This document shows positions 12,045 through 57,570 of a stretch of DNA of 64,000 nt, piece after piece. Made by a program: the position numbers and the translations under genes. Position 1 is the stretch's first letter, and each line of letters starts with the position of its first letter. Source of the stretch: a virus. Lineage: Duplodnaviria > Heunggongvirae > Uroviricota > Caudoviricetes. Below the pieces are notes generated by a model. That model searched no databases. It saw only the letters and a list, made by a program, of their open reading frames with translations, and was not told the DNA's origin. The stretch is taken from IMG/VR virus record IMGVR_UViG_2875703104_000004; one strand, 5' to 3'.

Positions 12045-12045
12045 C

Positions 12046-13104: not shown

Positions 13105-13485
13105 ATGACTGAACGCATAGAATTTGTTTTGCCTTACCCGCCGACGGTGAATACCTACTGGCGACGTCATGGCAATACGTATTTCATCTCGGAGGCCGGA
13201 AAGCGTTATCGCCGTGATGTGGCGCTAATTGTTCGCCAGCAGCGGCTGAAATTAAACCTGTCCGGAAGGCTGGCGATAAAGGTGATTGCAGAGCCACCGG
13301 ATAAGCGTCGTCGCGACCTGGACAATATCCTGAAAGCACCGCTGGATGCGCTGACGCATGCGGGAGTGTTAATGGACGATGAGCAGTTTGATGAAATCAA
13401 TATCGTTCGTGGTCAGCCAGTATCTGGTGGACGTATGGGGGTGAAGATTTACCCCATAATGCATGAAGAGCAGGTCAAAAAATGA
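13105..13485 (+). CDS. rusA: RusA-family Holliday junction resolvase (126 aa)
   Basis: LPYPPTVNTYWRRHGNTYFISEAGKRYRRDV...RRRDLDNILKAPLDALTHAGVLMDDEQ parallels E. coli RusA, which also occurs at 33441-33803 in this window. Confidence 0.85.
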   Translation: MTERIEFVLPYPPTVNTYWRRHGNTYFISEAGKRYRRDVALIVRQQRLKLNLSGRLAIKVIAEPPDKRRRDLDNILKAPLDALTHAGVLMDDEQFDEINIVRGQPVSGGRMGVKIYPIMHEEQVKK

Positions 13486-14037
13486 AACTGGAAGATTTAC
13501 CGAAATACTACTCCCCAAAATCCCCTGGCCTGACCGATGCATCGGCCTCAACGTCAAAAGATGCGCTGAGTATCACTGATGTGATGGCCGCGCAGGGCAT
13601 GACACAGAATCGGGCTGNGAAAGCGTTATCGCCGTGATGTGGCGCTTATTGTTCGCCAGCAGCGGCTGAAATTAAGCCTGTCCGGAAGGCTGGCGATAAA
13701 GGTGATTGCAGAGCCACCGGATAAGCGTCGTCGCGACCTGGACAATATCCTGAAAGCACCGCTGGATGCGCTGACGCATGCGGGAGTGTTAATGGACGAT
13801 GAGCAGTTTGATGAAATCAATATCGTTCGTGGTCAGCCAGTATCTGGTGGACGTNTGGGGGTGAAGATTTACCCCATAATGCATNAAGAGCAGGTCAAAA
13901 AATGAAACTGGAAGATTTACCGAAATACTACTCCCCAAAATCCCCTGGCCTGACCGATGCATCGGCCTCAACGTCAAAAGATGCGCTGAGTATCACTGAT
14001 GTGATGGCCGCGCAGGGCATGACACAGAATCGGGCTG
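13199..14037. repeat. Tandem duplication of about 419 bp (13199-13617, 13619-14037) joined by an N at 13618
   Basis: Seen directly; second copy carries extra Ns; duplicates the rusA 3' end and Q 5' end; likely a join artefact. Confidence 0.85.
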
Positions 14038-14365
14038 AGATGGGNTTTTCTGCGTTCCTGGGGAAAATGGGCATCAGTATGAATGACAGGGCGCGGGCAA
14101 CAGAATTACTGGCAGATTATGCACTCAGTCGGTGCGATCGTGTGGCGGCGTTGAGAAAACTTCCGGCAGAAATAAAACCGGTAGTGATGCGCATTATGGC
14201 TTCGTACGCTTTTGAGGATTATGCCCGCAGCGCAGCGAGTAAAAAGCAGTGCCCTTGTTGCTATGGGGAAAAATTTATTGAAAGCGTAGTTTTTACAAAC
14301 AAGGTCCAGTATCCGGATGGTAAGCCGCCGGTATGGGCAAAGTGTACGAAAGGTGTGTATTCGTC
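13903..14365 (+). CDS. Q: Lambda-Q-like late antiterminator, 3' end cut off at the N at 14366 (an N-terminal copy also at 13483-13617)
   Basis: KYYSPKSPGLTD...LSITDVMAAQGMTQNRA...CPCCYG resembles lambda Q (FHSPKSP...DVMAAMGM...) by recall. Confidence 0.6.
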
Positions 14366-14366
14366 N
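14366..14366. other. Probable contig junction (single N) between the phage Q gene and a truncated chromosomal/island gene
   Basis: Coding frame of Q and of the opposing SitA-like gene both terminate at this N. Confidence 0.7.
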
Positions 14367-21723: not shown

Positions 21724-23332
21724 GAGACGAACATTTACAGCAGAGGAAAAAGCCTCTGTTTTTGAACTATGGAAGAACGGAACAGGCTTCAGTGAAATAG
21801 CGAATATCCTGGGTTCAAAACCCGGAACGATCTTCACTATGTTAAGGGATACTGGCGGCATAAAACCCCATGAGCGTAAGCGGGCTGTAGCTCACCTGAC
21901 ACTGTCTGAGCGCGAGGAGATACGAGCTGGTTTGTCAGCCAAAATGAGCATTCGTGCGATAGCTACTGCGCTGAATCGCAGTCCTTCGACGATCTCACGT
22001 GAAGTTCAGCGTAATCGGGGCAGACGCTATTACAAAGCTGTTGATGCTAATAACCGAGCCAACAGAATGGCGAAAAGGCCAAAACCGTGCTTACTGGATC
22101 AAAATTTACCATTGCGAAAGCTTGTTCTGGAAAAGCTGGAGATGAAATGGTCTCCAGAGCAAATATCAGGATGGTTAAGGCGAACAAAACCACGTCAAAA
22201 AACGCTGCGAATATCACCTGAGACAATTTATAAAACGCTGTACTTTCGTAGCCGTGAAGCGCTACACCACCTGAATATACAGCATCTGCGACGGTCGCAT
22301 AGCCTTCGCCATGGCAGGCGTCATACCCGCAAAGGCGAAAGAGGTATGAACCGCCCCGGGAATCCTGGAGACTAAACTTCCTGAGAAAGAGGTAAACAGG
22401 ATGACTAAAAATACTCGTTTTTCCCCCGAAGTCCGTCAACGGGCAGTCCGTATGGTTCTGGAAAGTCAGAGCGAATATGACTCACAATGGGCGACAATTT
22501 GTTCCATTGCTCCAAAGATTGGCTGTACGCCGGAGACTCTGCGTGTCTGGGTTCGCCAGCATGAGCGGGATACCGGGGGCGGTGATGGAGGGCTCACCAC
22601 CGCTGAACGTCAGCGTCTGAAAGAGCTGGAACGTGAAAATCGTGAACTGCGCCGCAGTAACGATATCCTTCGCCAGGCTTCCGCTTATTTTGCGAAGGCG
22701 GAGTTCGACCGCCTCTGGAAAAAATNCGAATATCACCTGAGACAATTTATAAAACGCTGTACTTTCGTAGCCGTGAAGCGCTACACCACCTGAATATACA
22801 GCATCTGCGACGGTCGCATAGCCTTCGCCATGGCAGGCGTCATACCCGCAAAGGCGAAAGAGGTACGATTAACATAGTGAACGGAACACCAATTCACGAA
22901 CGTTCCCGAAATATCGATAACAGACGCTCTCTGGGACATTGGGAGGGCGATTTAGTCTCAGGTACAAAAAACTCTCATATAGCCACACTTGTAGACCGAA
23001 AATCACGTTATACGATCATCCTTAGACTCAGGGGCAAAGATTCTGTCTCAGTAAATCAGGCTCTTACCGACAAATTCCTGAGTTTACCGTCAGAACTCAG
23101 AAAATCACTGACATGGGACAGAGGAATGGAACTGGCCAGACATCTAGAATTTACTGTCAGCACCGGCGTTAAAGTTTACTTCTGCGATCCTCAGAGTCCT
23201 TGGCAGCGGGGAACAAATGAGAACACAAATGGGCTAATTCGGCAGTACTTTCCTAAAAAGACATGTCTTGCCCAATATACTCAACATGAACTAGATCTGG
23301 TTGCTGCTCAGCTAAACAACAGAACCGCGCTC
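21724..23332 (+). pseudogene. IS30 transposase gene, split by the IS629-like insertion/duplication and missing its last about 25 codons
   Basis: N-part 21724-22370 and C-part 22862-23332 (HWEGDL...GTNENTNGLIRQYFPK); the ORF ends in IS911-derived sequence. Confidence 0.7.
22376..22725 (+). mobile_element. IS629/IS1203-like (IS3 family) left end with orfA, cut off at an N join
   Basis: Terminal TGAACCGCCCCGGG and Orf[42 protein letters not shown]... (recall); sequence returns to IS30 after the N at 22726. Confidence 0.65.
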
Positions 23333-25600
<2,268 letters not shown>

Positions 25601-25636
25601 CCACTACAAAACACTGCTGAGATATTCAATTTTCCA

Positions 25637-26509
25637 GTGCCGGATGTGGCACAAAAGGAGCGGCGCGTGGCAGATCTCGACGATGGTTATACGCGCATTG
25701 CAAATGAGTTGCTGGAAGCTGTGATGCTGGCCGGATTAACACAGCACCAGTTTCTGGTCTTCCTGGCTGTCATGCGCAAAACATATGGCTTTAATAAAAG
25801 ACTGGATTGGGTGAGCAACGAGCAACTTTCCGAATTGACCGGGATATTGCCGCACAAGTGTTCTGCTGCAAAAAGCGTTCTGGTAAAGCGTGGGATTTTT
25901 ATTCAGAGCGGGCGGAATATCGGCATTAATAATGTGGTCAGTGAATGGTCAACATTACCCGAATCAGGTAAGAAAAATAAAGTTTACCTGAAAGAGGTAA
26001 ATTTACCTGAATCAGGTAAGAAAAGTTTACCCAAATCAGGTAAACACAAAAGACAAACTAACAAAAGACAATATAAAACCTTTTTCGTCCGAGAATTCTG
26101 ACGAATCCTCTGACCAGCCAGAAAACGATCTTCCTGTGGTGAAACCGGATGCTGCAATTCAGAGCGGCAGCAAGTGGGGGACAGCAGAAGACCTGATCGC
26201 CGCAGAGTGGATGTTTGACATGGTGAAGACCATCGCGCCATCAGCCAGAAAACCGAATTTGCAGGGTGGGCTAACGATATCCGCCTGATGCGTGAACGTG
26301 ACGGACGTAACCACCGCGACATGTGTGTACTGTTCCGCTGGGCATGCCAGGACAACTTTTGGTCTGGTAACGTGCTGAGCCCGGCCAAACTTCGCGACAA
26401 GTGGACCCAACTCGAAATCAACCGTAACAAACAACAGGCTGGCGTGACAGCCGGAAAACCAAAACTCGACCTGACAAACACTGACTGGATTTACGGGGTG
26501 GATTTATGA
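25637..26509 (+). pseudogene. O: Lambda O-like replication initiator, 5'-truncated by the IS nest and broken by two frameshifts at homopolymer runs (near 26060-26100 and near 26270)
   Basis: VADLDDGYTRIANELLEA...QFLVFLAVMRKTYGFNK and C-terminal ...LSPAKLRDKWTQLEINRNKQ...TDWIYGVDL resemble lambda O by recall; three frames needed to read through. Confidence 0.7.
25955..26043 (+). repeat. Four iteron-like repeats (TTTACCYGAATCAGGTAA-type) followed by an A-rich stretch: candidate ori-lambda-type origin inside O
   Basis: Seen directly; iterons embedded in the O gene are an established lambda feature. Confidence 0.6.
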
Positions 26510-27207
26510 AAAACATCGCCGCACAGATGGTTAACTTTGACCGTGAGCAGATGCGTCGGATCGCCAACAATATGCCGGAACAGTACGACGAAAAGCCGCA
26601 GGTACAACAGGTAGCGCAGATCATCAATGGTGTGTTCAGCCAGTTACTGGCAACTTTCCCGGCGAGCCTGGCTAACCGGGACCAGAACGAACTGAACGAA
26701 ATTCGCCGCCAGTGGGTGCTGGCTTTCCGGGAAAACGGGATCACCACAATGGAACAGGTTAACGCAGGAATGCGCGTAGCCCGTCGGCAGAATCGACCAT
26801 TCCTGCCATCACCCGGGCAGTTTGTTGCATGGTGCCGTGAAGAAGCATCCGTTATTGCCGGACTGCCAAACGCCAGCGAGCTGGTTGATATGGTTTACGA
26901 GTATTGCCGGAAGCGTGGCCTGTATCCGGATGCAGAGTCTTATCCGTGGAAATCAAACGCGCACTACTGGCTGGTTACTAGCCTGTACCAGAATATGCGG
27001 GCCAATGCGCTTACTGATACGGAATTACGGCGCAAGGCTGCCGATGAACTGACTTGTATGACCGCGCGAATTAACCGTGGTGAGGCGATACCTGAACCAG
27101 TAAAACAACTTCCTGTCATGGGCGGTAGACCTCTAAATCGTGTTCAGGCGCTGGCGAAGATCGCAGAAATCAAAGCTAAGTTCGGGCTGAAAGGAGTGAT
27201 GAAATAG
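26506..27207 (+). CDS. P: Lambda P replication protein (DnaB helicase loader), 233 aa
   Basis: MKNIAAQMVNFDREQMRRIANNMPEQYDEKPQVQQVAQIINGVF... near-identical to lambda P by recall. Confidence 0.9.
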   Translation: MKNIAAQMVNFDREQMRRIANNMPEQYDEKPQVQQVAQIINGVFSQLLATFPASLANRDQNELNEIRRQWVLAFRENGITTMEQVNAGMRVARRQNRPFLPSPGQFVAWCREEASVIAGLPNASELVDMVYEYCRKRGLYPDAESYPWKSNAHYWLVTSLYQNMRANALTDTELRRKAADELTCMTARINRGEAIPEPVKQLPVMGGRPLNRVQALAKIAEIKAKFGLKGVMK

Positions 27208-27456
27208 AGCTAAAGTATTAGCTTAAAAATAAAGTATACCTAGCGAATATAATCTAGGACTAGTTGTTATGCCCGAAATGATTGATTGCGTGAGTAACAA
27301 AGTGTCTCTTCCATTGTTGTGAAATCATTTAGCCATAAAGTTTATGCAGAGATTTTATTTTATTTTTGAGTTGATTTTTTTGTAACGATCTGTATATTTC
27401 GCGCCTCTTGTCATACCAGTTATTTTTTTCATTATATTCATAACGTTGATTGAACT

Positions 27457-30400
27457 ATGACCACTGTGAATAAAAAGTTAAAAAAAACTGCATCTGGCGC
27501 GATTACATGGTCGGTAATTGTTACCCAGATATTATCTCCAGTTTCTCTTTCTTTGATCCCAGCAAACAGTTTTGCATCATCTGGTAATAAAGATGTTACG
27601 CAAACTTATGCCAGCGATGAGCATGCAAATAAAGTGGCCTCATTTGCAGCAAGTGCAGGTCAGAGCCTGGCGAATAATAATGCAAGTAGTTTTGCTGTAA
27701 ATACTTTATCAACTCAGGCGACAAAAGAGGTCGTCGACTGGTTGCAACAATATGGCAATGCGCGCATCAAGCTTAATGTCGATGATTCTTTTTCCTTGAA
27801 GGATTCATCATTCGACTTTTTATATCCATGGCTGGATACTCAGGATTATGTGTTATTCAGTCAGACATCACTACATCGTACTGATGACCGAAATCAGACC
27901 AATATTGGTTTGGGGATTCGTCATTTCACTCCTGATAACGCAATGTTGGGTGCGAATGTTTTTTATGATTACGATTTAAGTCGCAGTCACTCTCGTGCAG
28001 GTTTTGGGGTTGAGTACTGGAGGGATTATTTCAGGCTTGGTGTAAATACCTATTTTGGTCTATCTGACTGGAAGAACAGTCGGGATATTGATGATTATCT
28101 GGAAAGACCTGCAAATGGCTGGGATTTTTCTGCTGAAGGATGGCTACCTGCTTATCCGCAATTAGGGGCATCTATTCAGTTTGAAAAATATTATGGTAAA
28201 AATGTCGGGTTATTTGGAAGCGATAACCTTCAGGAAAACCCTTACGCAGTTACTGGGGGAATTTCTTATACACCAGTTCCTCTGATTAAGTTTTCTGCAC
28301 AGCATAAGCAAGGACAGAGCAACGTTCACGATACAACCTTCGGTGTTGAGTTTAATTATCGCCCGGGCGTTTCCCTGGCTGAACAGCTTAGCAGCGATAA
28401 TGTTGCAGTTATGCGAGAAGTCCAGAATCGGCGTTATGATTTTGTTGAACGAAATAACAACATTGTTCTGGAGTACAAGAAGAAGCATGCACTGAAAATC
28501 AGTTTGCCAGAGTCTGTTCAGGGGGAGGGGGAATCAATCATCCCTGTAACACTGACAATCAACAATGCTAGTGGTGGTATCAAGTCTGTACAGTGGAATG
28601 ATAGTGCATTCACTGCGGCTGGCGGCAAGATCAGTGGAAATGGCACATCATGGCAGATCACTTTACCGGCTTATAAAAGCGAAGGTGTAAATTCGTGGAA
28701 TGTTGGAGCCACAGTCCAGGATAACAGAGGCAATGTTTCCAACTATGCCGTTATGAATATCAGCGTTAATAATAGTGGTGTCTCGACAGCGGATTCATCT
28801 TTTACGCTGGATGGGGATTCGTCTCCGACGATCTCTGCTGATGGTCAATCCACTTATCCAATAGTATTAAGCCTGAAAGACAGTAACGGTAAGGCATTAA
28901 CCGGACTGGCTGATGACATTGAAATGTCTGTGGAATTTACTGCGGATAGCAATAGTGCTCGACAGCGTGAAACGGTAACTGCTCCGTCATTAGGCGCGGT
29001 AGAGGAAATCTCTGCTGGTGTATATCGCTCTGTTCTGGCTGCTGGTTCGCAGGCTGGGACGGTACGTGTAACTGCAAAAGTTCAGGGAAAAACATTTACT
29101 CTCAGTATTAAGCAAACAGCAGCAACAGAACCTGATTCTGAGGTCAGTGCTGTTTTAACCGCTGCACCAGCAGAACAGGTAGTTGGTTACAATATCAATC
29201 TACAACTGGCAGTGAAGGATTCACAAGGAAATGCAATCACTGGTGATAACACTCTGAGCTTTTATGCTCTTAACCAGGCAGAAGGAGTCGAGTTTGGGAC
29301 TGTAACGGAAAAAGACGGTGTCTATAGCGCGACAGTAACTTCAAAACGAGCTGGTAAGATTACTATCGGTGTTAAATCTGATAGTCATGATTTCTCAGGT
29401 GTTAAGAAAGAAATCACCTTTATTGAGGACCGGCAGCAGGTTACATTCTCTCAGTTTGAAGCCAGCCAAAATAATGCATTGGCTGATGGAAAACAGAGAA
29501 ATATGGTAACTGTAAGCCTTGCGGACCGTTTCGGCAATGTTGTTCCTGGTTATGCTGTCACATTGTCTTTACCAGCAGGGATAACTCAAGTTGGTGGTGA
29601 ACATGCTGTTTCAACTGACGAAAATGGTAATGCTATTTTTGCGTTAATAAGCTCCACTCCGGGGTCTTACGTGATTACAGCTCATGCTGGTTCTCAGATG
29701 TCTACTGAGTTAACAGTGACCTTTGCATCAAATATGACCGGAGCTTCACTGTCACTGACGCCTGAAAGCAGTAGTTTAATTTCCAATATTCCTGCTAATG
29801 GTAAGGATGCAGCGGTATTAGATGTGCAGCTGACAAATACGAATGCGTCGGTCAATGGGCAAAAGATTCAGCTCATCACCTCATCTGAAGGATTATCTGT
29901 ACCAACAAATATCGTGACTGATTCAACAGGGCATGTTTCTGTTCCGCTTACAACGGTGAAAGCTGGTGAGTACACGGTGACTGCACGGGTGACTGACGGT
30001 TCCCATAGCGTGGAATCTGGCAGCGTTAAGTTAACTTTTGTGCCCGATGTTGCTTCTGCAGAACTTACTATGAGTGTATCAAAACAGGAGATTGTGGCCG
30101 ATGGCAGTGAAAACGCAACAGTAAACATTCAGTTGGTTGATGCGAATAACAATGCGTTTACAGGTGAGGTGGATTTAACGATTACACCATCGACGGGAGC
30201 ATCATTGACCAGTAGTAATCTGCAACTGGATGCTCATGGACAGGCAACAACGCAGTTCACTGCATCGAAATCAGGCCAGTACACAATTCAGGCCGAGTAT
30301 GTTCTGGATGGGAAACGCATAACCGCAAGCCAGAATATTGATGCCGTGACGGATGTGAAGGGGGCTGTGTTGGAGATCACATCATCTGCATCTTCGGCTG

Positions 30401-31008
30401 TAGTGAGCGATACCAACAATCTGGTATTTACGTTACTGTTGAAAAGTAAGTCAGGCGAAGCATTAAGTGGTCGAGCATTGAATGTTAAGACATCTGGGCC
30501 GTCTAAATATGGTGCGTTGGTGGTTGATAAAACCACAGTAACGACTGATGAGAACGGTCAGGCTACGGTAAGCGTACATGGTCGAACGGTTGGTTCGTAT
30601 AAATTAACGGCGACCTTAAACGAACTTGGCAGTGATGTTAGCGCGGTGAAATCATTCTCCCTGTACGCTGATGACGCAAATGGAGTATTGACTCTAACAA
30701 AAGATCCTGGTTATGAGACAAACGATGGCTCTCCAGTAGGTATTTATGCTCGATTTGTCGATCATTTTGGAAACCCATTATCTGGTACGGTTGAGTTTTC
30801 TGCTGGTAGTGAAGATAGTCCAGACTCTCAACGGGTCAAAATGGAGCCTGCTACAGTAACGTTACACTGGACAGGTAATGCAGCTTCGGAATTCAGCACC
30901 TATGAAAGTGGTTATCACTGGATTAAGGCCAAAATAACGAATAGCAAAAATACATATGAGAAAACAATAAGGACTTATGTTGTAAAACTACCTGAAAAGG
31001 ATAGTTAA
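27457..31008 (+). CDS. Inverse autotransporter (intimin/invasin-family) outer-membrane adhesin with repeated Ig-like (Big) domains, 1183 aa
   Basis: Signal peptide, N-terminal beta-barrel-like region (YPWLDTQDYVLFSQTSLHRTDDRNQTNIGLGIRHF...) then repeated about 100-aa segments; AT-rich gene. Confidence 0.75.
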   Translation: MTTVNKKLKKTASGAITWSVIVTQILSPVSLSLIPANSFASSGNKDVTQTYASDEHANKVASFAASAGQSLANNNASSFAVNTLSTQATKEVVDWLQQYGNARIKLNVDDSFSLKDSSFDFLYPWLDTQDYVLFSQTSLHRTDDRNQTNIGLGIRHFTPDNAMLGANVFYDYDLSRSHSRAGFGVEYWRDYFRLGVNTYFGLSDWKNSRDIDDYLERPANGWDFSAEGWLPAYPQLGASIQFEKYYGKNVGLFGSDNLQENPYAVTGGISYTPVPLIKFSAQHKQGQSNVHDTTFGVEFNYRPGVSLAEQLSSDNVAVMREVQNRRYDFVERNNNIVLEYKKKHALKISLPESVQGEGESIIPVTLTINNASGGIKSVQWNDSAFTAAGGKISGNGTSWQITLPAYKSEGVNSWNVGATVQDNRGNVSNYAVMNISVNNSGVSTADSSFTLDGDSSPTISADGQSTYPIVLSLKDSNGKALTGLADDIEMSVEFTADSNSARQRETVTAPSLGAVEEISAGVYRSVLAAGSQAGTVRVTAKVQGKTFTLSIKQTAATEPDSEVSAVLTAAPAEQVVGYNINLQLAVKDSQGNAITGDNTLSFYALNQAEGVEFGTVTEKDGVYSATVTSKRAGKITIGVKSDSHDFSGVKKEITFIEDRQQVTFSQFEASQNNALADGKQRNMVTVSLADRFGNVVPGYAVTLSLPAGITQVGGEHAVSTDENGNAIFALISSTPGSYVITAHAGSQMSTELTVTFASNMTGASLSLTPESSSLISNIPANGKDAAVLDVQLTNTNASVNGQKIQLITSSEGLSVPTNIVTDSTGHVSVPLTTVKAGEYTVTARVTDGSHSVESGSVKLTFVPDVASAELTMSVSKQEIVADGSENATVNIQLVDANNNAFTGEVDLTITPSTGASLTSSNLQLDAHGQATTQFTASKSGQYTIQAEYVLDGKRITASQNIDAVTDVKGAVLEITSSASSAVVSDTNNLVFTLLLKSKSGEALSGRALNVKTSGPSKYGALVVDKTTVTTDENGQATVSVHGRTVGSYKLTATLNELGSDVSAVKSFSLYADDANGVLTLTKDPGYETNDGSPVGIYARFVDHFGNPLSGTVEFSAGSEDSPDSQRVKMEPATVTLHWTGNAASEFSTYESGYHWIKAKITNSKNTYEKTIRTYVVKLPEKDS

Positions 31009-31018
31009 CAAAATTGAA

Positions 31019-31047
31019 TGGGGAGGGCTTAGCCCTCCCTCTTTTTA
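31019..31047. terminator. Bidirectional rho-independent terminator between the convergent adhesin and esterase genes
   Basis: GGGGAGGGC-TTA-GCCCTCCC hairpin with a T-run on the + strand and an A-run (T-run on the - strand) upstream. Confidence 0.6.
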
Positions 31048-32088
31048 CAGGTTAGCGTTTGGGTTTTGTTGTTGGGGAGCTGTTTTTATAGGCGCTCCCA
31101 GGTTTTTAGTAAACCACTCAACGACTCTGTTTATAATAATTGGCTGATACCATGTCTTATCGCCATGCTCGGCCCCTTCTACCAGCACGTACTCAGCGTT
31201 ATCGCCGTTCTTCTTCAACATCCTGAATAGTTTGGCGCTTTGCTCAGGTGAAACCAGAGTGTCTTTGCTACCATGCATAATAAGAAATGGGGGTTTTACT
31301 CCTTTCATATGTCCGATTGGACTGGCGTTTAGCGCTTTTTCTTTTGACGCTGTGATGGGGGCTCCCGCAAAATTTCTGAATGCAGGGCCATTGATCATTA
31401 AGGCTTCGGTTACGGCAGGAGAGCGATGAACCTCCTGCACTGATTCAGGGAACCCCTCGCCAATATTCAACAAGTCAGAAATCCCATAAAGTGTGGCAAC
31501 TGCCTGAACATCTGAGGATTGCTGAAGAAAGTCACCTTTATCAAAGGTTTTGTCACCATTTGTAGTTCCCATCATCTGAGCAAGCCATCCACCGGCAGAG
31601 TCACCCAGAACTCCGATTCTTTGAGGATCAATCCCATAATTGCTGGCATGCTCTCTCAGGTAACGTATTGCAGCTTTTCCATCCTCAACTGGTGCTGGAA
31701 ATGTATCAGGAATTGTTCTGTATTCTACAGCGGCCACAACAAAACCAGCTTCTGCCAGAGCCATTCTCATTTCAATAAATTTGTCATGTTCAGAAGACAT
31801 GAATCCGCCGCCGGGATAATAAATAATGGCTGGTTTTAAATCATTTGTTCGCGGGACAAGAACTGACATGTGAAGCTGTCTGACAGAACGAGTTCCTTTT
31901 ATCTGGGAATAAACAACATCACCAATGAGATCGACTTGGTTTCTGGTCGGTGAAACACTAATGATATCTGCACCCGGGGTGTAACCAGGAAGATTAGTCT
32001 GGACAGGTGTTGCACAACTCCCGACCGACATGGCCATTGACATACCATACAATAGTGTTGCAGATGATAATATCTTGTTAATTTTCAT
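31045..32088 (-). CDS. Secreted/lipoprotein alpha/beta-hydrolase (esterase/lipase), 347 aa
   Basis: Signal peptide with possible lipobox (MSVGSC); oxyanion-hole YPGGGF and nucleophile-elbow GDSAGG motifs. Confidence 0.75.
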   Translation of the reverse strand: MKINKILSSATLLYGMSMAMSVGSCATPVQTNLPGYTPGADIISVSPTRNQVDLIGDVVYSQIKGTRSVRQLHMSVLVPRTNDLKPAIIYYPGGGFMSSEHDKFIEMRMALAEAGFVVAAVEYRTIPDTFPAPVEDGKAAIRYLREHASNYGIDPQRIGVLGDSAGGWLAQMMGTTNGDKTFDKGDFLQQSSDVQAVATLYGISDLLNIGEGFPESVQEVHRSPAVTEALMINGPAFRNFAGAPITASKEKALNASPIGHMKGVKPPFLIMHGSKDTLVSPEQSAKLFRMLKKNGDNAEYVLVEGAEHGDKTWYQPIIINRVVEWFTKNLGAPIKTAPQQQNPNANL

Positions 32089-32535
32089 GTTTTACATGCC
32101 TTGACTTATCGGATGAAATTCTCTTACTGAATTTAACGGCAGTTTAATAGCCGTACAACTCGTGGTAGCCAGGGAAATATCCCAGTCGTGGTTAAGGTTG
32201 TACTTGACGGCTATTATTTCAACAATGCTTAAAGTGAGAGCTTAAGGTTATGCGTATGTTTTACAGTCCGAGTAGATTCTGACCAATAGCTTCTTTGTAT
32301 AATTCTGTCAGAAATAAATCTTGGCTTGCATGAAGTTTGAGACCTTATCTTGTTTGATTATGAATAATCAATTCGCCATAATTGTATCACCGGAGCCTGA
32401 ACAACTCCGGTGACTTCTGCGCTAAACGGGGACGTTTATGCGCACACACAATCCAAACTCTCTTCTCCCTTCACAGATGCAGAAATGCACCTGCGTTTTT
32501 TTGCATCCAGCGTCTGACCTCTGTGGAGGTGAAGC

Positions 32536-32991
32536 GTGAACCTACCACAAGATGGCATCAAACTGCATCGCGGTAACTTCATCGCTATCGGCCAGCAGAT
32601 CCAGCCTTATCTGGAGGACGGAAAATGCTTTCGCATGGTGCTTAAACCGTGGCGTGAGAAACGCAGTCTTTCCCAGAATGCACTCAGCCATATGTGGTAC
32701 AGCGAAATCAGTGAATACCTCATCAGCAGGGGGAAATCGTTCGCTACCGCAGCATGGGTAAAAGATGCTCTCAAACACACATACCTCGGTTATGAAACCA
32801 AGGACCTGGTTGATGTCGTAACCGGCGAAATCACTACTATCCAGTCGTTACGCCATACCTCCGATCTTGATACCGGAGAGATGTATGTCTTCCTGTGTAA
32901 GGTTGAAGCCTGGGCGATGAATATTGGCTGCCACCTGACTATTCCGCAGAGCTGCGAGTTCCAGCTGCTGCGCGACAAGCAGGAGGCGTAA
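32536..32991 (+). CDS. ybcN: YbcN-like nin-region protein (151 aa), GTG start
   Basis: [15 protein letters not shown]... matches DLP12 YbcN by recall. Confidence 0.7.
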
Positions 32992-33161
32992 TGGCTACAC
33001 CGCTTATTCGTGTCATGAACGGACACATCTACAAAGTACCAAATCGTCGTAAGTGTAAACCTGAGCTGAAGCCATCCGAAATACCAACACTGCTCGGGTA
33101 TACCGCCAGCCTGGTTGATAAAAAATGGTTGCGACTGGCAGCAAGGAGGAATCATGGCTGA
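32991..33161 (+). CDS. ninE: NinE-like protein (56 aa)
   Basis: My own translation [56 protein letters not shown]; TAATG coupling to ybcN. Confidence 0.7.
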   Translation: MATPLIRVMNGHIYKVPNRRKCKPELKPSEIPTLLGYTASLVDKKWLRLAARRNHG

Positions 33162-33444
33162 TTTAAGAAAAGCAGCGCGTGGTCGGGAATGCCAGGTAAG
33201 AATCCCTGGCGTATGTAATGGCAATCCTGAAACGTCAGTACTGGCACATATCCGGCTGGCTGGATTGTGCGGTACCGGTATCAAACCGCCAGACCTGATT
33301 GCCACCATTGCATGTTCTGCCTGCCACGACGAAATCGACCGTCGCACGCATTTTGTTGACGCTGGATATGCAAAAGAATGCGCGCTGGAAGGTATGGCGA
33401 GAACACAGGTTATCTGGTTGAAAGAGGGGGTTATTGAGGCGTGA
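33154..33444 (+). CDS. ybcO: YbcO-like nin-region protein with Cys-rich motif (96 aa)
   Basis: [26 protein letters not shown]...; RBS AGGAGG upstream. Confidence 0.7.
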
Positions 33445-33803
33445 ATACCTACAGCATCACATTACCCTGGCCTCCGAGCAATAATCGCTATTACCGCCAT
33501 AATCGTGGGCGCACGCACGTCAGCGCAGAGGGGCAGGCATACTGCGATAACGTCGCCCGAATCATTAAAAACGCAATGCTGGATATCGGCTTGGCTATGC
33601 CAGTGAAAATCAGCATTGAGTGCCACATGCCGGATCGCCGTCGCCGTGACCTTGATAATCTGCAAAAGGCCGCTTTTGACGCACTCACCAAAGCAGGTTT
33701 CTGGCTGGATGATGCTCAGGTCGTTGATTACCGCGTTGTGAAGATGCCCGTTACCAAAGGTGGGAAGCTGGAGCTGACTATCACTGAACTGGGAGATGAA
33801 TGA
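33441..33803 (+). CDS. rusA: RusA Holliday junction resolvase (120 aa)
   Basis: [34 protein letters not shown]...[34 protein letters not shown]... matches E. coli RusA by recall. Confidence 0.9.
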
Positions 33804-33940
33804 TGTTTGAGTCTTATATGGCAGAGCGTCTTCGCCGCCGCTGGGTGCGCCTGCGCTTATATCGTTTTCCTGGTTCTGTTTTGACCGATTACCGAATACT
33901 GAAGAATTACGCCAAAACCCTGACAGGAGCAGGAGTATGA
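33803..33940 (+). CDS. ylcG: YlcG-like small protein (45 aa)
   Basis: My own translation [45 protein letters not shown]. Confidence 0.55.
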   Translation: MFESYMAERLRRRWVRLRLYRFPGSVLTDYRILKNYAKTLTGAGV

Positions 33941-34025
33941 AGTCAGAGATAACAATCAACTAATACTGTTTTGTTGATTTTTGCTTGTAATTGGCGTTCT
34001 GGTCTGATTTTTGTGGAGTAAGTTG

Positions 34026-34268
34026 ATGCGTGATATTCAGATGGTTCTTGAGCGTTGGGGAGCGTGGGCGGCTAATAATCATGAAGATGTGACCTGGTCG
34101 TCCGTTGCCGCCGGTTTTAAGGGATTAATTCCTTCAAAAGTAAAATCTCGCCCGCAATGTTGTGACGATGACGCGATGATCATTTGCGGGTGCATGGCCC
34201 GTCTGAAAAAGAACAACAGCGATTTACACGATTTATTAGTAGATTATTATGTAAGTGCTTGGCATTAA
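34026..34268 (+). pseudogene. quuD: DLP12-type Q antiterminator (quuD-like), 3'-truncated at a deletion junction near 34255
   Basis: [26 protein letters not shown]...[26 protein letters not shown] then out-of-family residues and stop. Confidence 0.7.
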
Positions 34269-34386
34269 CTTTCCCGTATAGATCCAGCTTGTTACTGTCT
34301 TTATTATAAATTTCAGCTGCCTGAGCAGACATCGCCATCAGTACTGATGCAGCTACAGCAGAAATTGCCACTGTTAATTTTTTCAT
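34255..34386 (-). pseudogene. nmpC: 5' remnant of an NmpC/OmpC-type porin gene (signal peptide plus about 20 mature residues)
   Basis: [44 protein letters not shown] then divergence at the same junction that truncates quuD. Confidence 0.6.
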
Positions 34387-34813
34387 TGTACGCCCTTTTT
34401 TTGAACTTTTATTAAAAAATGATGTCACTGCACTACAAATATTCATCTAATCAATGAGATTATTTCAAGATGTAAGTTTTAGTTTCTCATTTAATTTGTG
34501 AAGTAGATCTCTATTTTTATCTGAACCTTTTCTATCTAATCCTATTCATGGCTCTTGTCTGAACAAAAATAAATCTATTAGCTAATTTATATTAATGGCA
34601 CTTATTTATAAGTGCTCTATAATTCTTTAGCTTAATTTAAACAAACTAAAAATAACATCGGAAATTATTAACTGGTTATTTGTTGAAGTTTTCTTATGCA
34701 TTTGTGGTGGTGTTTTGAACACTCGGTGGCATTCTCACAAATATCATTTAGTAGTTTACGTACGTAAAAAATTGGTTATGCTGTTAAGAGTGGTTACTTC
34801 GTCACACAGCTTA

Positions 34814-34845
34814 AACCCGCCGTCGAGCGGGTTTTTCCATTTTTT
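34814..34845 (+). terminator. Rho-independent terminator upstream of the lysis genes (tR'-like)
   Basis: aaacccgc-cgtcga-gcgggttt hairpin plus T-run; position between Q and the holin, analogous to lambda tR'. Confidence 0.55.
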
Positions 34846-34974
34846 GAGTCTCGATATTAGCTGATAACCCAATACCTGAGTTATTCACTGACTCCGAATC
34901 TGTTACGTTTCTGCCTTTATTGCGATACGTAGTATCCCCTTAATTTACACCCGCTTTGTCTGCGAGGTGGGGTT

Positions 34975-35190
34975 ATGAAATCCATGGATAAGTTAACAAC
35001 GGGTGTCGCCTATGGTACCTCAGCAGGTAGTGCCGGGTACTGGTTTTTACAGTTGCTCGATAAAGTCACGCCCTCACAGTGGGCGGCAATAGGTGTGCTG
35101 GGTAGCCTGGTATTTGGCCTGCTGACGTACCTGACAAACCTTTATTTCAAGATTAAAGAAGATAAGCGCAAGGCTGCGAGAGGTGAATAA
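34975..35190 (+). CDS. essD: Holin (71 aa)
   Basis: [53 protein letters not shown]...; first gene of the lysis cassette. Confidence 0.85.
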
Positions 35191-35687
35191 TGCCTCCATC
35201 ATTACGAAAAGCCGTTGCTGCTGCTATTGGTGGCGGAGCAATTGCTATAGCATCAGTGTTAATCACTGGCCCAAGTGGTAACGATGGTCTGGAAGGTGTC
35301 AGCTACATACCATACAAAGATATTGTTGGTGTATGGACTGTATGTCACGGGCATACAGGAAAAGACATCATGCTCGGTAAAACGTATACCAAAGCAGAAT
35401 GCAAAGCCCTCCTGAATAAAGACCTTGCCACGGTCGCCAGACAAATTAACCCGTACATCAAAGTCGATATACCGGAAACAATGCGCGGCGCTCTTTACTC
35501 ATTCGTTTACAACGTGGGTGCTGGCAATTTCAGAACATCGACGCTTCTTCGCAAAATAAACCAGGGCGATATCAAAGGCGCATGTGATCAGCTACGTCGC
35601 TGGACATATGCTGGCGGTAAGCAATGGAAAGGTCTCATGACTCGTCGTGAGATTGAGCGTGAAATCTGTTTGTGGGGTCAGCAATGA
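35190..35687 (+). CDS. rrrD: Phage lysozyme (endolysin), 165 aa
   Basis: T4-lysozyme-like; position between holin and Rz; matches DLP12 RrrD by recall. Confidence 0.9.
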
Positions 35688-36145
35688 ACAGAGTAACCGC
35701 GATTATCTCCGCTCTGGTTATCTGCATCATCGTCTGCCTGTCATGGGCTGTTAATCATTACCGTGATAACGCCATTACCTACAAAGCCCAGCGCGACAAA
35801 AATGCCAGAGAACTGACGCTGGCGAACGCGGCAATTACTGACATACAGATGCGTCAGCGTGATGTTGCTGCGCTCGATGCAAAATACACGAAGGAGTTAG
35901 CTGATGCGAAAGCTGAAAATGATGCTCTGCGTGATGATGTTGCCGCTGGTCGTCGTCGGTTGCACATCAAAGCAGTCTGTCAGTCAGTGCGTGAAGCCAC
36001 CACCGCCTCCGGCGTGGATAATGCAGCCTCCCCCCGACTGGCAGACACCGCTGAACGGGATTATTTCACCCTCAGAGAGAGGCTGATCACTATGCAAAAA
36101 CAACTGGAAGGAACCCAGAAGTATATTAATGAGCAGTGCAGATAG
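35684..36145 (+). CDS. rzpD: Rz-like i-spanin
   Basis: N-terminal TM helix then coiled-coil region; overlaps the lysozyme stop. Confidence 0.8.
35904..36086 (+). CDS. rzoD: Rz1-like o-spanin lipoprotein embedded in the +1 frame of Rz (60 aa)
   Basis: Lipobox LPLVVVGC and proline-rich [19 protein letters not shown]; ORF entirely inside Rz. Confidence 0.75.
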
Positions 36146-36176
36146 AGCTGCCCATATCGATGGGCAACTCATGCAA

Positions 36177-36470
36177 TTATTGTGAGCAATACACACGCGC
36201 TTCCAGCGGAGTATAAATGCCTAAAGTAATAAAACCGAGCAATCCATTTACGAATGTTTGCTGGGTTTCTGTTTTAACAACATTTTCTGCACCACCACAA
36301 ATTTTTGCTGCATCGACAGTTTTCTTCTGCCCAATTCCCGAAACGAAGAAATGATGGGTGATGGTTTCCTTTGGTGTTACTGCTGTAGGTTTGTTTCCAA
36401 CAGTAAACGTCTGTTGAGCACATCCTGTAATAAGCATTGCCAGAGCGGCAGAAAACAACATTTTTTTCAT
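36177..36470 (-). CDS. borD: Bor lipoprotein (97 aa)
   Basis: MKKMLFSAALAMLITGCAQQTFTV...ETITHHFFVSGIGQKKTVDAAKICGGAENVVKTETQQTFVNGLLGFITLGIYTPLEARVYCSQ, near-identical to lambda Bor by recall. Confidence 0.85.
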   Translation of the reverse strand: MKKMLFSAALAMLITGCAQQTFTVGNKPTAVTPKETITHHFFVSGIGQKKTVDAAKICGGAENVVKTETQQTFVNGLLGFITLGIYTPLEARVYCSQ

Positions 36471-36730
36471 CTTATTATCCTGCATTGTTAAAAACGGCAG
36501 AATCCTATGTGACAACAATTAAACGATAGTTAAATGGATTGATGAAAATTAAAACTACACAGGTGGGCTCAGACTATTGGAGGAAGTTGGGGACACTCAG
36601 AATCCTGTGGAATGAAATAAACCGGTCTATCCGTCCATTACCCTTTTAGCTGCGCTGTATCGTCGCCGTATTCCCGCATTAACCATGACCGTAGCCCGAC
36701 GGGGAATTCCTTCTGCGTGAGTGTGCGGGA

Positions 36731-37360
36731 ATAATTAAAAACGATGCACACCGGGTTTTTACCGCGTTAATGATTCGCGGGTTTATCCCGGTGCGATGGT
36801 GGAAGAAACAGGAAGCTGTATTACAGAAAGTGCTACTACTGTATCCCGATGCGATGTATGTAATGTGAGTCAGATAATGGCACAGGATGTGGTGATGTGG
36901 CAGTCTGGAACACAGGATATATTGTCAGAATAAGACCCGTAGGAATAAAAATGAAAAGACGCCTTTTACTACTTTTTCTGTTATCTGTCCTGGCAGTGGG
37001 ATGCTCGCAGCAAAAAGCTGATGAGCCCCGGCAATTAGTGACGGTGTATCCACGATATCCGGAATATGCTGCAGCAAATTATATCAAGGGGCTGGTTGAG
37101 GTTAAGTTCGATATTGGTGCTGATGGGACTGTGACACGGATCGTTTTTCTCCGCTCAGAGCCTCATAATTTGTTTCGTGATGAAGTGGTGAAGGCCATGG
37201 CGAAATGGCGATTTGAAAAGAATCGCCCCTGTCAGGGAGTGAAGAGACAATTTATCTTTACGCCGTCACGTCCTTGATGCTTCCAGGTAGAGAGGGGCTG
37301 GAAGCAGGAGAAAAATGAAAGAGCCAGCGGTTATATTTTTGTCATGGCTGACGAGGAATG
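36731..37360. repeat. 630-bp segment repeated at 57433-58062 (carries the 3' end of the truncated tail-fibre ORF and a lipoprotein gene); followed by an N at 37361
   Basis: Seen directly; copies near-identical. Confidence 0.85.
36951..37277 (+). CDS. Lipoprotein with TonB-C-terminal-like domain (108 aa); copy 1
   Basis: MKRRLLLLFLLSVLAVGCSQ lipobox; ...YPRYPEYAAANYIKGLVEVKFDIGADGTVTRIVFLRSEPHNLFRDEVVKAMAKWRFE resembles the TonB C-terminal fold motif. Confidence 0.6.
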   Translation: MKRRLLLLFLLSVLAVGCSQQKADEPRQLVTVYPRYPEYAAANYIKGLVEVKFDIGADGTVTRIVFLRSEPHNLFRDEVVKAMAKWRFEKNRPCQGVKRQFIFTPSRP

Positions 37361-40310: not shown

Positions 40311-42015
40311 AACGAACGCCTGTCCTGATTGATGTGAACGGCGTTCCGCTTCGTGAGAGTCTCAGCTACAACGGGGGCGGTGCAGGATTTGGCGGGCAAA
40401 TGGCTGAGTGGTTGCCACCGGCGCAGAGTGCCGATGCGGCCCTGCTGCCCGCGTTGCGTCTGGGGAATGCCCGGGCAGATGATCTGGTGCGCAATAACGG
40501 AATAGCGGCTAATGCGGTGGCTCTGCATAAGGATCACATTGTCGGGCATATGTTTCTGATCAGCTACCGTCCGAACTGGCGCTGGCTGGGGATGCGGGAG
40601 ACCGCAGCAAAAAGCTTTGTCGATGAGGTGGAGGCGGCCTGGTCGGAATACGCCGAAGGGATGTTTGGCGAGATCGACGTGGAAGGAAAACGCACGTTCA
40701 CGGAATTTATCCGTGAAGGTGTGGGCGTTCATGCGTTTAACGGCGAAATCTTTGTGCAGCCGGTCTGGGATACGGAAACCACGCAGTTATTCCGTACGCG
40801 TTTTAAAGCCGTGAGTCCGAAACGGGTGGACACGCCTGGACACGGTATGGGGAACCGTTTTCTGCGGGCCGGTGTGGAGGTCGATCGATATGGCCGTGCC
40901 GTCGCGTACCATATCTGTGAGGATGATTTTCCGTTCTCTGGTAGTGGACGATGGGAACGGATCCCGCGTGAACTTCCCACCGGGCGTCCGGCCATGCTGC
41001 ATATTTTCGAGCCGGTGGAGGACGGGCAGACCCGTGGGGCTAATCAGTTTTACAGCGTCATGGAACGGCTGAAGATGCTCGATTCCCTGCAGGCAACACA
41101 GCTTCAGTCGGCCATAGTGAAGGCGATGTATGCAGCGACGATTGAAAGTGAACTTGATACCGAAAAGGCCTTTGAATATATCGCCGGCGCGCCACAGGAG
41201 CAGAAGGATAATCCGCTTATTAATATTCTGGAGAAGTTCTCCAGCTGGTATGACACGAATAACGTGACACTGGGCGGTGTCAAAATTCCGCACCTTTTCC
41301 CTGGTGATGATCTGAAACTACAGACTGCGCAGGATTCAGACAATGGATTTTCTGCGCTTGAACAGGCGCTGCTGCGGTATATCGCCGCCGGTCTTGGCGT
41401 TTCCTACGAACAGTTGTCCCGTGATTACTCGAAGGTCAGTTACTCAAGTGCCCGCGCCTCCGCCAATGAGTCGTGGAACAGGCGCTGCTGCGGTATATCG
41501 CCGCCGGTCTTGGCGTTTCCTACGAACAGTTGTCCCGTGATTACTCGAAGGTCAGTTACTCAAGTGCCCGCGCCTCCGCCAATGAGTCGTGGCGCTATTT
41601 TATGGGGCGGCGAAAATTTATTGCGGCCCGGCTGGCCACGCAGATGTTTTCCTGCTGGCTGGAAGAGGCACTTCTTCGGGGGATTATTCGTCCGCCACGG
41701 GCACGTTTTGATTTTTATCAGGCGCGATCAGCCTGGTCACGGGCAGAGTGGATTGGTGCCGGAAGAATGGCCATTGACGGGCTCAAGGAAGTCCAGGAAT
41801 CAGTGATGCGCATTGAGGCCGGACTGAGCACGTATGAGAAAGAGCTGGCGCTGATGGGCGAGGATTATCAGGACATTTTCCGCCAGCAGGTCAGGGAATC
41901 TGCTGAGCGGCAAAAAGCCGGACTCTCACGTCCGGTGTGGATAGAGCAGGCGTATCAGCAGCAGATAGCGGAGAGTCGTAGGCCGGAAGAGGAGACAACA
42001 CCACGTGAGACGTAA
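40307..42015 (+). CDS. B: Portal protein (gpB-like), disrupted in this assembly by a 116-bp tandem duplication (41361-41476, 41477-41592)
   Basis: N-part ORF 40277-41806 and C-part ORF 41473-42015 are co-linear with lambda B; removing one duplicate unit restores the frame. Confidence 0.8.
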
Positions 42016-48336: not shown

Positions 48337-50825
48337 ACCGGTAGGCGATCTGGTCGTTGATTTAAGTCTGGATGCGGCCAGATTTGACGAGCAGATGGCC
48401 AGAGTCAGGCGTCATTTTTCCGGTACGGAAAGTGATGCGAAAAAAACAGCGGCAGTCGTTGAACAGTCGCTGAGCCGACAGGCGCTGGCTGCACAGAAAG
48501 CGGGGATTTCCGTCGGGCAGTATAAAGCCGCCATGCGTATGCTGCCTGCACAGTTCACCGACGTGGCCACGCAGCTTGCAGGCGGGCAAAGCCCGTGGCT
48601 GATCCTGCTGCAACAGGGTGGTCAGGTTAAGGACTCCTTCGGCGGGATGATCCCCATGTTCCGGGGGCTTGCCGGTGCGATCACCCTGCCGATGGTCGGG
48701 GCCACCTCGCTGGCGGTGGCGACCGGTGCGCTGGCGTATGCCTGGTATCAGGGTAACTCAACCCTGTCCGATTTCAACAAAACGCTGGTCCTTTCCGGCA
48801 ATCAGTCGGGTCTGACGGCAGATCGTATGCTGGTCCTGTCCAGAGCCGGGCAGGCGGCAGGGCTGACGTTTAACCAGACCAGCGAGTCACTCAGCGCACT
48901 GGTTAAGGCGGGAGTAAGCGGTGAGGCTCAGATTGCATCCATCAGCCAGAGTGTGGCGCGTTTCTCCTCTGCATCCGGCGTGGAGGTGGACAAGGTCGCT
49001 GAAGCCTTCGGGAAGCTGACCACTGACCCGACGTCGGGGCTGACGGCGATGGCGCGCCAGTTCCATAACGTAACGGCGGAGCAGATTGCGTATGTTGCTC
49101 AGTTGCAGCGTTCCGGCGATGAATCCGGGGCATTGCAGGCGGCGAACGAGGCCGCAACGAAAGGGTTTGATGACCAGACCCGACGCCTGAAAGAGAACAT
49201 GGGCACGCTGGAAACCTGGGCAGACAGGACAGCACGGGCATTCAAATCCATGTGGGATGCGGTGCTGGATATTGGTCGTCCTGATACCGCTCAGGAGATG
49301 CTGATTAAGGCAGAGGCTGCGTTTAAGAAAGCGGACGACATCTGGAATCTGCGCAAGGATGATTATTTTGTTAACGATGAAGCGCGGGCGCGTTACTGGG
49401 ATGATCGTGAAAAGGCCCGTCTTGCGCTTGAAGCCGCCCGAAAGAAGGCTGAACAGCAGAGTCAACAGGACAAAAATGCGCAGCAGCAGAGCGATACCGA
49501 AGCATCACGGCTGAAATATACCGAAGAGGCGCAGAAGGCTTACGAACGGCTGCAGACACCGCTGGAGAAATATACCGCCCGTCAGGAAGAACTGAACAAG
49601 GCACTGAAAGACGGGAAAATCCTGCAGGCAGATTACAACACGCTGATGGCGGCGGCGAAAAAGGATTATGAAGCGACGCTGAAAAAGCCGAAACAGTCCG
49701 GCGTGAAGGTGTCTGCGGGCGATCGTCAGGAAGACAGTGCTCATGCTGCCCTGCTGACGCTTCAGGCTGAACTCCGGACGCTGGAGAAGCATGCCGGAGC
49801 AAATGAGAAAATCAGCCAGCAGCGCCGGGATTTGTGGAAAATCCCTGCTGGCGCATAAAGATGAGACGCTGGAGTACAAACGCCAGCTGGCTGCACTTGG
49901 CGACAAGGTTACGTATCAGGAGCGCCTGAACGCGCTGGCGCAGCAGGCGGATAAATTCGCACAGCAGCAACGGGCAAAACGGGCCGCTATTGATGCGAAA
50001 AGCCGGGGGCTGACTGACCGGCAGGCAGAACGGGAAGCCACGGAACAGCGCCTGAAGGAACAGTATGGCGATAATCCTCTGGCGCTGAATAACGTCATGT
50101 CAGAGCAGAAAAAGACCTGGGCGGCTGAAGACCTGCTTCGCGGGAACTGGATGGCAGGCCTGAAGTCCGGCTGGAGTGAGTGGGAAGAGAGTGCCACGGA
50201 CAGTATGTCGCAGGTTAAAAGTGCTGCCACGCAGACCTTTGATGGTATTGCGCAGAATATGGCGGCGATGCTGACCGGCAGTGAACAGAACTGGCGCAGC
50301 TTCACCCGTTCCGTGCTGTCCATGATGACAGAAATTCTGCTTAAGCAGGCAATGGTGGGGATTGTCGGGAGTATCGGCAGCGCTATTGGCGGGGCTGTTG
50401 GTGGCGGCGCATCCGCGTCAGGCGGTACAGCCATTCAGGCCGCTGCGGCGAAACTCCATTTTGCAACCGGAGGATTTACGGGAACCGGCGGCAAATATGA
50501 GCCAGCGGGGATTGTTCACCGTGGTGAATTTGTCTTCACGAAGGAGGCAACCAGCCGGATTGGCGTGGGAAATCTCTACCGGCTGATGCGCGGCTATGCC
50601 ACCGGCGGTTATGTCGGTGGCACCGGAAGTCCGGCGCAAATGCGGCGTTCAGAGGGTATCAGGTTTGAGCAGAACAACAACGTGGTGATTCAGAACGACG
50701 GTACGAATGGTCTGCCAGGTCCACAGATGATGAAGGCGGTGTATGACATGGCCCGCAAGGGTGCCCGTGATGAAATCCAGGCACAGATGCGCGATGGTGG
50801 TCTGTTCTCCGGAGGTGGACGATGA
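48329..50825 (+). pseudogene. H: Tape measure protein H, broken by a frame-shifting deletion near 49840
   Basis: ORFs 48329-49858 and 49791-50825 are both co-linear with lambda H; about 21 codons present in lambda (recall) are absent at the junction ...DLWK | KSLLAHKDETLEYKR. Confidence 0.8.
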
Positions 50826-56739: not shown

Positions 56740-57570
56740 GTGAATATGGCAGTACAGATTTCAGGCGTGCTGAAAGACGGTGCAGGAAAACCGATACAGA
56801 ACTGCACCATTCAGCTCAAAGCAAAACGTAACAGCACCACGGTTGTGGTGAACACGGTGGCCTCAGAAAATCCGGATGAAGCCGGACGTTACAGCATGGA
56901 TGTCGAGTATGGCCAGTACAGCGTTATCCTGCTGGTTGAAGGTTTTCCGCCTTCACATGCCGGGGCCATCACCGTGTATGAGGATTCTAAGCCGGGGACA
57001 TTGAATGATTTTCTGGGCGCTGCAACAGAAGATGATGTTCGTCCGGAGGCACTGTATCGTTTTGAAAAGATGGTGGAAGAGGTGGCACGCAACGCTGAAG
57101 CCGCCTCTCAGAGCGCAGCGGCAGCAAAGAAATCAGAAACAGCAGCGGCATCGTCCAGGAATGCGGCGAAAACATCAGAGACGAATGCAGGTAACAGCGC
57201 GAAAGCGGCAGCTTCTTCAAAAACAGCCGCACAAAACGCAGCAACAGCGGCAGAACGTTCAGAGACAAATGCCCGTGCGTCAGAAGAAGCCTCCGCAGAC
57301 AGTGAAGAGGCTTCCCGCCGTAATGCAGAGTCAGCCGCTGAAAATGCCGGAGTCGCCACCACAAAAGCGCGGGAGGCCGCAGCAGACGCAACAAAGGCCG
57401 GGCAGAAAAAGGATGAGGCTCTGTCGGCAGCGATAATTAAAAACGATGCACACCGGGTTTTTACCGCGTTAATGATTCGCGGGTTTATCCCGGTGCGATG
57501 GTGGAAGAAACAGGAAGCTGTATTACAGAAAGTGCTACTACTGTATCCCGATGCGATGTATGTAATGTGA
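56740..57570 (+). CDS. stf: Side tail fibre protein Stf, N-terminal about 230 aa only, fused to an unrelated 3' tail
   Basis: MAVQISGVLKDGAGKPIQNCTIQLKAKRNSTTVVVNTVASENPDEAGRYSMDVEYGQYSVILLVEGFPPSHAG... matches the lambda Stf N-terminus by recall; C-terminal part not Stf-like. Confidence 0.7.
   Translation: MNMAVQISGVLKDGAGKPIQNCTIQLKAKRNSTTVVVNTVASENPDEAGRYSMDVEYGQYSVILLVEGFPPSHAGAITVYEDSKPGTLNDFLGAATEDDVRPEALYRFEKMVEEVARNAEAASQSAAAAKKSETAAASSRNAAKTSETNAGNSAKAAASSKTAAQNAATAAERSETNARASEEASADSEEASRRNAESAAENAGVATTKAREAAADATKAGQKKDEALSAAIIKNDAHRVFTALMIRGFIPVRWWKKQEAVLQKVLLLYPDAMYVM

Follow-up and report, generated by a model that had tools for sequence, protein, structure and literature searches.

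The stretch of DNA analysed here (the window; 64,000 nucleotides of the IMG/VR record IMGVR_UViG_2875703104_000004, a virus of the Caudoviricetes) contains the 5' part of quuD, a putative late antiterminator gene, joined directly to the 5' part of a convergent nmpC/ompC-like porin gene, and the two fragments are followed by a terminator-like site and a lysis cassette (Table 1). A first-pass annotation had recognized both genes and their convergent orientation, had placed the end of both at about 34255 and had read the arrangement as a biological deletion. The identities and the orientation are borne out by the open reading frames, by Pfam and by an alignment with the DLP12 prophage of Escherichia coli K-12, and the exact breakpoint lies at 34253|34254, where the sequence displays neither an N nor a duplication.

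The quuD reading frame starts at an ATG at position 34026 of the + strand and retains codons 1-76 of 127 up to 34253, after which four foreign codons (SAWH) precede a TAA stop at 34266-34268. The loss of the C-terminal part, described earlier as one third of the protein, is real at the level of the reading frame but larger than estimated, since 51 of the 127 residues, about 40% of the length, are missing. The truncated product matches the Pfam profile PF06530 over positions 1-77 of 118 only (E=1.6e-37), whereas the intact QuuD homolog of FDAARGOS_144 covers this profile from end to end (1-118). PF06530 is assigned to the Q21/Q933W family, and the mechanism of Q21 has been described (bioRxiv 10.1101/651190). 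The intact homolog is also similar to the Q21 chains of PDB entries 6P18 and 6JNX (E=3.2e-8, residues 8-88 against 20-101), and the 76 residues retained in the window span most of this Q21-similar stretch. Judged from these similarities, QuuD is a lambdoid late antiterminator of the Q21/Q933W family. On the opposite strand, the porin frame begins at an ATG at 34386 and comprises 44 codons plus one nucleotide, which encode a signal peptide of 23 aa and 21 residues of the mature protein, in agreement with the signal peptide plus about 20 residues reported previously; beyond the break this frame reads into antisense quuD. The resulting 68-aa ORF has no Pfam match, and hence none to the Porin_1 beta-barrel domain (PF00267), to which the full porin homolog matches at 1.8e-151.

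The first-pass annotation also listed an intact set of lysis genes and a downstream terminator at 34814-34845. Both statements hold, as essD, rrrD and rzpD/rzoD are of full length with Pfam matches and a terminator-like hairpin followed by a T-run was located at 34813-34844. This hairpin may be tR', at which Q antitermination would act; one such site was found where 0.6 were expected. A sigma-70 promoter-like site lies upstream of it, and we regard it as a candidate late promoter PR' by its position and its consensus match only, the count of such sites in the region not being above the shuffled expectation. The promoter-like site and the hairpin ahead of essD (34595-34844) show a geometry like that of lambda PR'-6S-tR'. 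The consensus match suggests that the late promoter may be located between nmpC and essD, rather than beside quuD; quuD itself is positioned upstream of the terminator-like site and of the essD-rrrD-rzpD cassette.

Table 1. Features of the quuD-nmpC region and abutting duplications in the window.
Feature	Position	Strand	Basis and remarks
Abutting direct duplications	1410-1956, 2506-2784, 5121-5384, 7789-8115, 9563-9846, 13199-14040, 22208-22865, 41360-41592, 58609-58909, 62762-62994		Self-comparison
quuD fragment, Q21-family antiterminator	34026-34268	+	ORF list; Pfam PF06530; identity to EcPF40
Final 149 bp left of the junction, without differences between the two prophage types; left margin of the shared block	34105-34253		Last type-distinguishing site at 34104
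Initial 141 bp right of the junction, without differences between the two prophage types; right margin of the shared block	34254-34394		First type-distinguishing site at 34395
nmpC/ompC-like porin fragment	34254-34386	-	100% identity to the 5' end of clone D i14 'porin OmpC'
Sigma-70 promoter-like site, ATGGCA-17-TATAAT	34595-34623	+	Consensus scan; about 190 nt upstream of the terminator
Candidate tR' (intrinsic-terminator-like hairpin and T-run)	34813-34844	+	130 nt upstream of essD
essD, P21-type holin, 71 aa, intact	34975-35190	+	PF04971, E=2e-35; 100% to clone D i14
rrrD, lysozyme, 165 aa, intact	35190-35687	+	PF00959, E=1.3e-45
rzpD (Rz-like spanin) with embedded rzoD (35904-36086), intact	35684-36145	+	PF03245, E=7.6e-54; ORFs; K-12 annotation
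bor/iss lipoprotein gene, full length	36177-36470	-	PF06291, E=1.1e-30; annotated iss in clone D i14

The alignment with a DLP12 quuD-nmpC reference, which had been proposed as a check, was run and proved collinear on both sides of the junction. Positions 32353-34253 align without gaps to ybcN-ninE-ybcO-rusA-ylcG-quuD of K-12 (95.5%), and positions 34254-36524 to the 5' end of nmpC followed by essD, rrrD, rzpD/rzoD and borD (93.8%). These alignments are unambiguous and cannot be due to chance. The order rusA-ylcG-quuD-(nmpC)-essD-rrrD-rzpD/rzoD-bor is therefore that of K-12 apart from one gap, which corresponds to K-12 bases 574184-576692 (positions 6185-8693 of L001) and includes IS5. Compared with the intact loci of E. 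coli EcPF40 and clone D i14, the gap measures exactly 1,294 bp and takes in the 3' 40% of quuD, a 188-bp intergenic spacer and the porin gene from codon 45 to its end; in EcPF40 (NZ_CP054214.1) this interval corresponds to 1954511-1955804. Related complete genomes carry at this place a quuD gene of 384 bp, the 188-bp spacer, a convergent porin gene of 1,083 bp annotated ompC, a spacer of about 590 bp with the terminator, and essD. In all close relatives with either flank the 1,294-bp module is intact, and it is conserved at 100% across hundreds of genomes. In strict register the microhomology at the break is 0 bp, and with an insertion of one base permitted it amounts to 3 bp (GTA); a 13-bp overlap indicated by BLAST at 34254-34266 was rejected as microhomology, being on inspection a gapped chance extension.

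The two sides of the junction do not belong to the same type of prophage. The left side, including quuD up to 34253, agrees at 100% with the prophage remnant linked to icd in E. coli EcPF40 and FDAARGOS_536, and over 23328-34253 no mismatch to EcPF40 occurs in 10,926 bp. The right side is that of clone D i14, with 0 mismatches in 3,107 bp over 34254-37360 and 3 further mismatches over 37362-57433. Each side is only 96-97% identical to the other prophage type. Both flanks of a genuine deletion would be expected to derive from one parental locus; here the left flank is EcPF40-type at 100% and the right flank clone D-type at 100%. The two types occupy the same chromosomal site, from icd to sit, each in its own genome. 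They are near-identical, with 3 differences (at 29078, 29151 and 29546), over a block of 1,586 bp (L006, 28362-29948) and more divergent on both sides of it, and all 1,294 missing bases fall within this block. Between the replication gene P and ybcN, the left part of the icd prophage bears a cargo (27457-32088) consisting of an inverse-autotransporter (intimin/invasin-like) gene encoding 1,183 aa and a convergent alpha/beta-hydrolase gene encoding 347 aa, annotated alike in EcPF40, FDAARGOS_536 and FDAARGOS_144.

The junction was also sought elsewhere. None of 5,426 complete E. coli genomes spans it, and the hybrid arrangement of an EcPF40-type left flank with a clone D-type right flank is likewise found in none of them. 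An exact search with a 30-mer across the junction gave no hit in genome, viral and metagenome contig collections, and no record was returned by exact-protein look-ups for the QuuD truncation products (80 and 85 aa), the 68-aa porin stub and a tape-measure fragment with a frameshift. A search of the literature for quuD-nmpC deletions yielded nothing relevant.

The structure of the window as a whole bears on how this junction is to be read. Self-comparison revealed ten abutting direct duplications of 117-422 bp, eight of them at 100% and two at 98.8-99.4% identity, and in several a single N or a run of 21 Ns is placed exactly between the two copies. When the window is mapped on the near-identical EcPF40 sequence, a backward step of 116-421 bp is observed at each duplication. 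The duplications are unmerged overlaps of contig ends and shift the reading frames of genes, among them the two portal genes, which are affected at the same position. Two foreign fragments are found between duplicated ends, a 380-bp piece of an IS3-family orfA (HTH_Tnp_1) at 22347-22726, enclosed by IS30 ends, and a 195-bp xis-exo spacer variant from another prophage type at 1586-1780 in the potC prophage; each resembles a small repeat or bubble contig that was inserted between its neighbours. The order of the segments matches no complete genome, with sitA-hyp followed by the icd 3' end and the late region of the potB prophage following the tail-fibre gene of the icd prophage. Furthermore, at a single locus, none of the complete E. 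coli genomes (n=5,426) matches over more than 59-75% of a large piece of the window. A second truncated antiterminator, clearly an artefact, is seen at 13621-14366. Here the antitermination gene of the prophage at potC, which measures 822 bp in EcPF40, breaks off at 14365, and an N at 14366 connects it to sitA.

Other sites display omitted or collapsed sequence. A single N at 37361 stands where 558 bp of clone D i14 (L007, 23332-23889) are missing. The repeat that matches this gap appears once, at 57434-58759. It differs from either reference at four positions only, all of them Ns, and presumably two copies of the repeat differ at these sites. The gap at 37361 thus looks like another case of an omitted or collapsed repeat, comparable to that at quuD-nmpC. 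Isolated Ns in otherwise perfect matches (2198, 2445, 13855, 13885, 14045, 21654, 21657, 58005, 58321, 58441 and 58559) probably mark, in the same manner, differing sites of collapsed repeat copies. At 16834|16835 the window switches seamlessly from clone D-type sitA-hyp to EcPF40-type sequence, which comprises the 3' end of icd and then ATPase-HNH-intE; the stretch shared at the switch measures only 16 bp, and the adjacency occurs in no complete genome. Tandem icd-targeting elements, joined at an att core, or a contig-merging artefact could account for it. Two losses relative to clone D i14, of about 60-64 bp in the tape-measure gene (49836-49839) and of 23 bp in gene J (55096), each cause a frameshift and each lie at a short direct repeat, while the comparison with clone D i14 otherwise gives 0 mismatches over 7.6 kb; they may be real slippage deletions or assembly errors.

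The demonstrable joins of the window provide internal controls for the distance that a contig runs into a repeat. For the join in the portal gene (41476), the window contains both prophage copies; here the contig on the upstream side extends exactly 150 bp past the last site at which the copies differ, and the one on the downstream side begins exactly 150 bp ahead of the following such site. In two further contigs, the first difference lies 139 and 151 bp after the start. The two sides of the quuD-nmpC breakpoint reach 149 and 141 bp into the shared block, compared with 139-151 bp at the demonstrable joins. Because this reach matches the internal controls, the quuD and nmpC ends behave, as far as the sequence tells, as ordinary contig ends that extend about one read length into an unresolved repeat. 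The distance of 150 bp is not universal, as the contig at 34254-37360 crosses an exact repeat of about 570 bp. Likewise, the end at 57433 does not follow the rule of about 150 bp for EcPF40 and clone D, as it lies 55 bp after the nearest difference. A mixture of two strains was tested on the potC prophage (1-14365), in which the joins do not coincide with blocks of identity between EcPF40-type and clone D-type sequence; a mixture is consequently neither shown nor needed, and the breaks in this prophage could be caused by other prophage copies in one genome.

Considering these results together, we hold it to be very probable that the junction at 34253|34254 is an assembly artefact, in which a collapsed repeat contig was omitted and the flanks of two prophage copies were abutted. 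The earlier reading as a biological deletion is not supported, because the window is a chain of contigs, its flanks here are of two prophage types, both breakpoints fall inside the block that these types share, and the junction is present in no other genome or collection searched. Independent contig-join artefacts occur in the surrounding record, and the junction is missing from the independent assemblies searched. In fact, the quuD-nmpC deletion most probably exists in no real genome. The circumstance that the first-pass annotation had itself named as speaking against its claim, a problem in the assembly, is likely to be the truth, and the compromised Q-dependent late transcription that it had predicted is also left without support, since the deletion from which it was deduced is probably an artefact. 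Some observations weigh on the other side. Besides the two exceptions to the reach of about 150 bp, the join has neither an N nor a duplicated overlap, unlike most other joins in the window, and neither the predicted repeat contig nor the reciprocal flanks, clone D-type on the left and EcPF40-type on the right, are present in the window.

A sequence that reads straight through the junction in this manner would also be produced by a genuine deletion of 1,294 bp private to one strain, generated by illegitimate end-joining or slippage with 0-3 bp of microhomology in a hybrid or tandem icd-site prophage, and the possible GTA at the break would suit such an event. The frameshifting losses in the tape-measure gene (64 bp) and in gene J (23 bp) of the same prophage can be read as signs of prophage decay, and cryptic lambdoid prophages often lose this region, the nmpC gene of K-12 being disrupted by IS5. 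Nevertheless, we consider this origin improbable. Both breakpoints would have to fall by chance less than 150 bp inside the two edges of the block common to the two types, in flanks from two lineages that are never joined in the 5,426 genomes, within a window that contains at least ten proven assembly joins. Moreover, almost no SNPs but several structural lesions relative to clone D i14 are the signature of assembly error and not of decay, and the absence of the junction from all collections searched argues in the same direction. Least probable of all, and hardly to be expected, is an artefact of another origin, a chimeric join formed inside a contig by the assembler or a merging tool through a false overlap or a chimeric read. 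The absence of a separating N, compared with the Ns at several other non-overlapping joins (14366, 37361), would fit such an event, and the seamless switch at 16834|16835 indicates that the pipeline is capable of clean switches. However, the two ends overlap by only 0-3 bp, and their reach into the repeat fits ordinary contig termination.

Based on the omission of a collapsed repeat contig as the preferred explanation, we hypothesize the following course. The source record would be a pseudo-molecule strung from short contigs. The sequenced sample would have contained two lambdoid prophages related to each other, which either shared one genome, where they may have lain in tandem at icd, or came from two strains. 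The first would be the EcPF40-type remnant with the inverse-autotransporter gene, and the second a clone D i14-type prophage with a complete late region. The near-identical module of 1.6 kb that comprises the quuD 3' part and nmpC would be present on both copies and could not be resolved by the assembler, so that each unique contig would have entered the module by roughly a read length (no more than about 150 bp) before ending. The collapsed repeat contig would then have been left out, as we infer, and the EcPF40-type left flank abutted to the clone D-type right flank. From the distances of the breakpoints, the other copy of the block in the sample is expected to be flanked by clone D-type sequence on the left and by EcPF40-type sequence on the right. 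Such a pattern of flanks would arise if both natural configurations, which are known from complete genomes, were present and the pseudo-molecule crossed between them. In the real DNA, quuD and nmpC are expected to be of full length in each copy, and the intact locus would be an ordinary late region of the DLP12/phage-21 type. QuuD would load on RNA polymerase at the putative late promoter, and the polymerase carrying it would read through the candidate terminator at 34813-34844 into essD-rrrD-rzpD/rzoD, with the porin gene as a convergently transcribed moron.

If the deletion were real, QuuD would consist of 76 plus 4 residues and lack the C-terminal 40% of its family domain, and the porin moron would be nearly gone. 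By analogy with Q21 (bioRxiv 10.1101/651190), loading of QuuD at the late promoter would be predicted to fail. Transcripts from PR' would end at the candidate terminator unless a compatible Q were supplied in trans from another or a sister prophage, which would leave the lysis and morphogenesis genes behind an unrelieved terminator, a case of ordinary prophage decay. Biologically the junction carries little weight, as the intact module is common and prophage decay by deletion is routine. Its significance concerns the record, which is to be regarded as concatenated unresolved contigs from at least two similar prophages, and whose truncations, fusions and frameshifts should not be trusted without the reads. 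Genes that are possibly artefactual in the window include both portal genes, the tape-measure gene, J, the P1 antiterminator gene and quuD/nmpC.

Several known systems resemble the region. Intact QuuD is like the Q21/Q933W family (PF06530; PDB 6P18, 6JNX) in its profile, in its similarity to the Q21 structures and in its place just upstream of the late terminator and the lysis genes, whereas the copy in the window retains only the first part of the profile. The DLP12 prophage of K-12 (quuD, nmpC::IS5, essD-rrrD-rzpD/rzoD, borD) has the same set of genes and is collinear at 94-95.5% on both sides of the junction; nevertheless, its quuD is of full length and its nmpC is cut by IS5 near the 3' end and not to 44 codons. 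DLP12 is moreover located at argU, in contrast to the icd site here, and the surrounding prophage also differs. A close likeness is found in the icd-site lambdoid prophages of E. coli B2 (EcPF40, FDAARGOS_536/144 and clone D i14), in which the gene order, the terminator and the lysis cassette are as in the window, but all of these loci hold the 1,294 bp and none combines both types of flank. As an assembly product, the window shares with the misassemblies of concatenated drafts, caused by collapsed repeats and unmerged overlaps, its abutting duplicated ends, N separators, omitted repeats and non-collinear order, as well as ambiguous bases at sites that vary between repeat copies. The quuD-nmpC join differs from these in having neither an N nor an overlap, and it is recognised only by comparison with related genomes.
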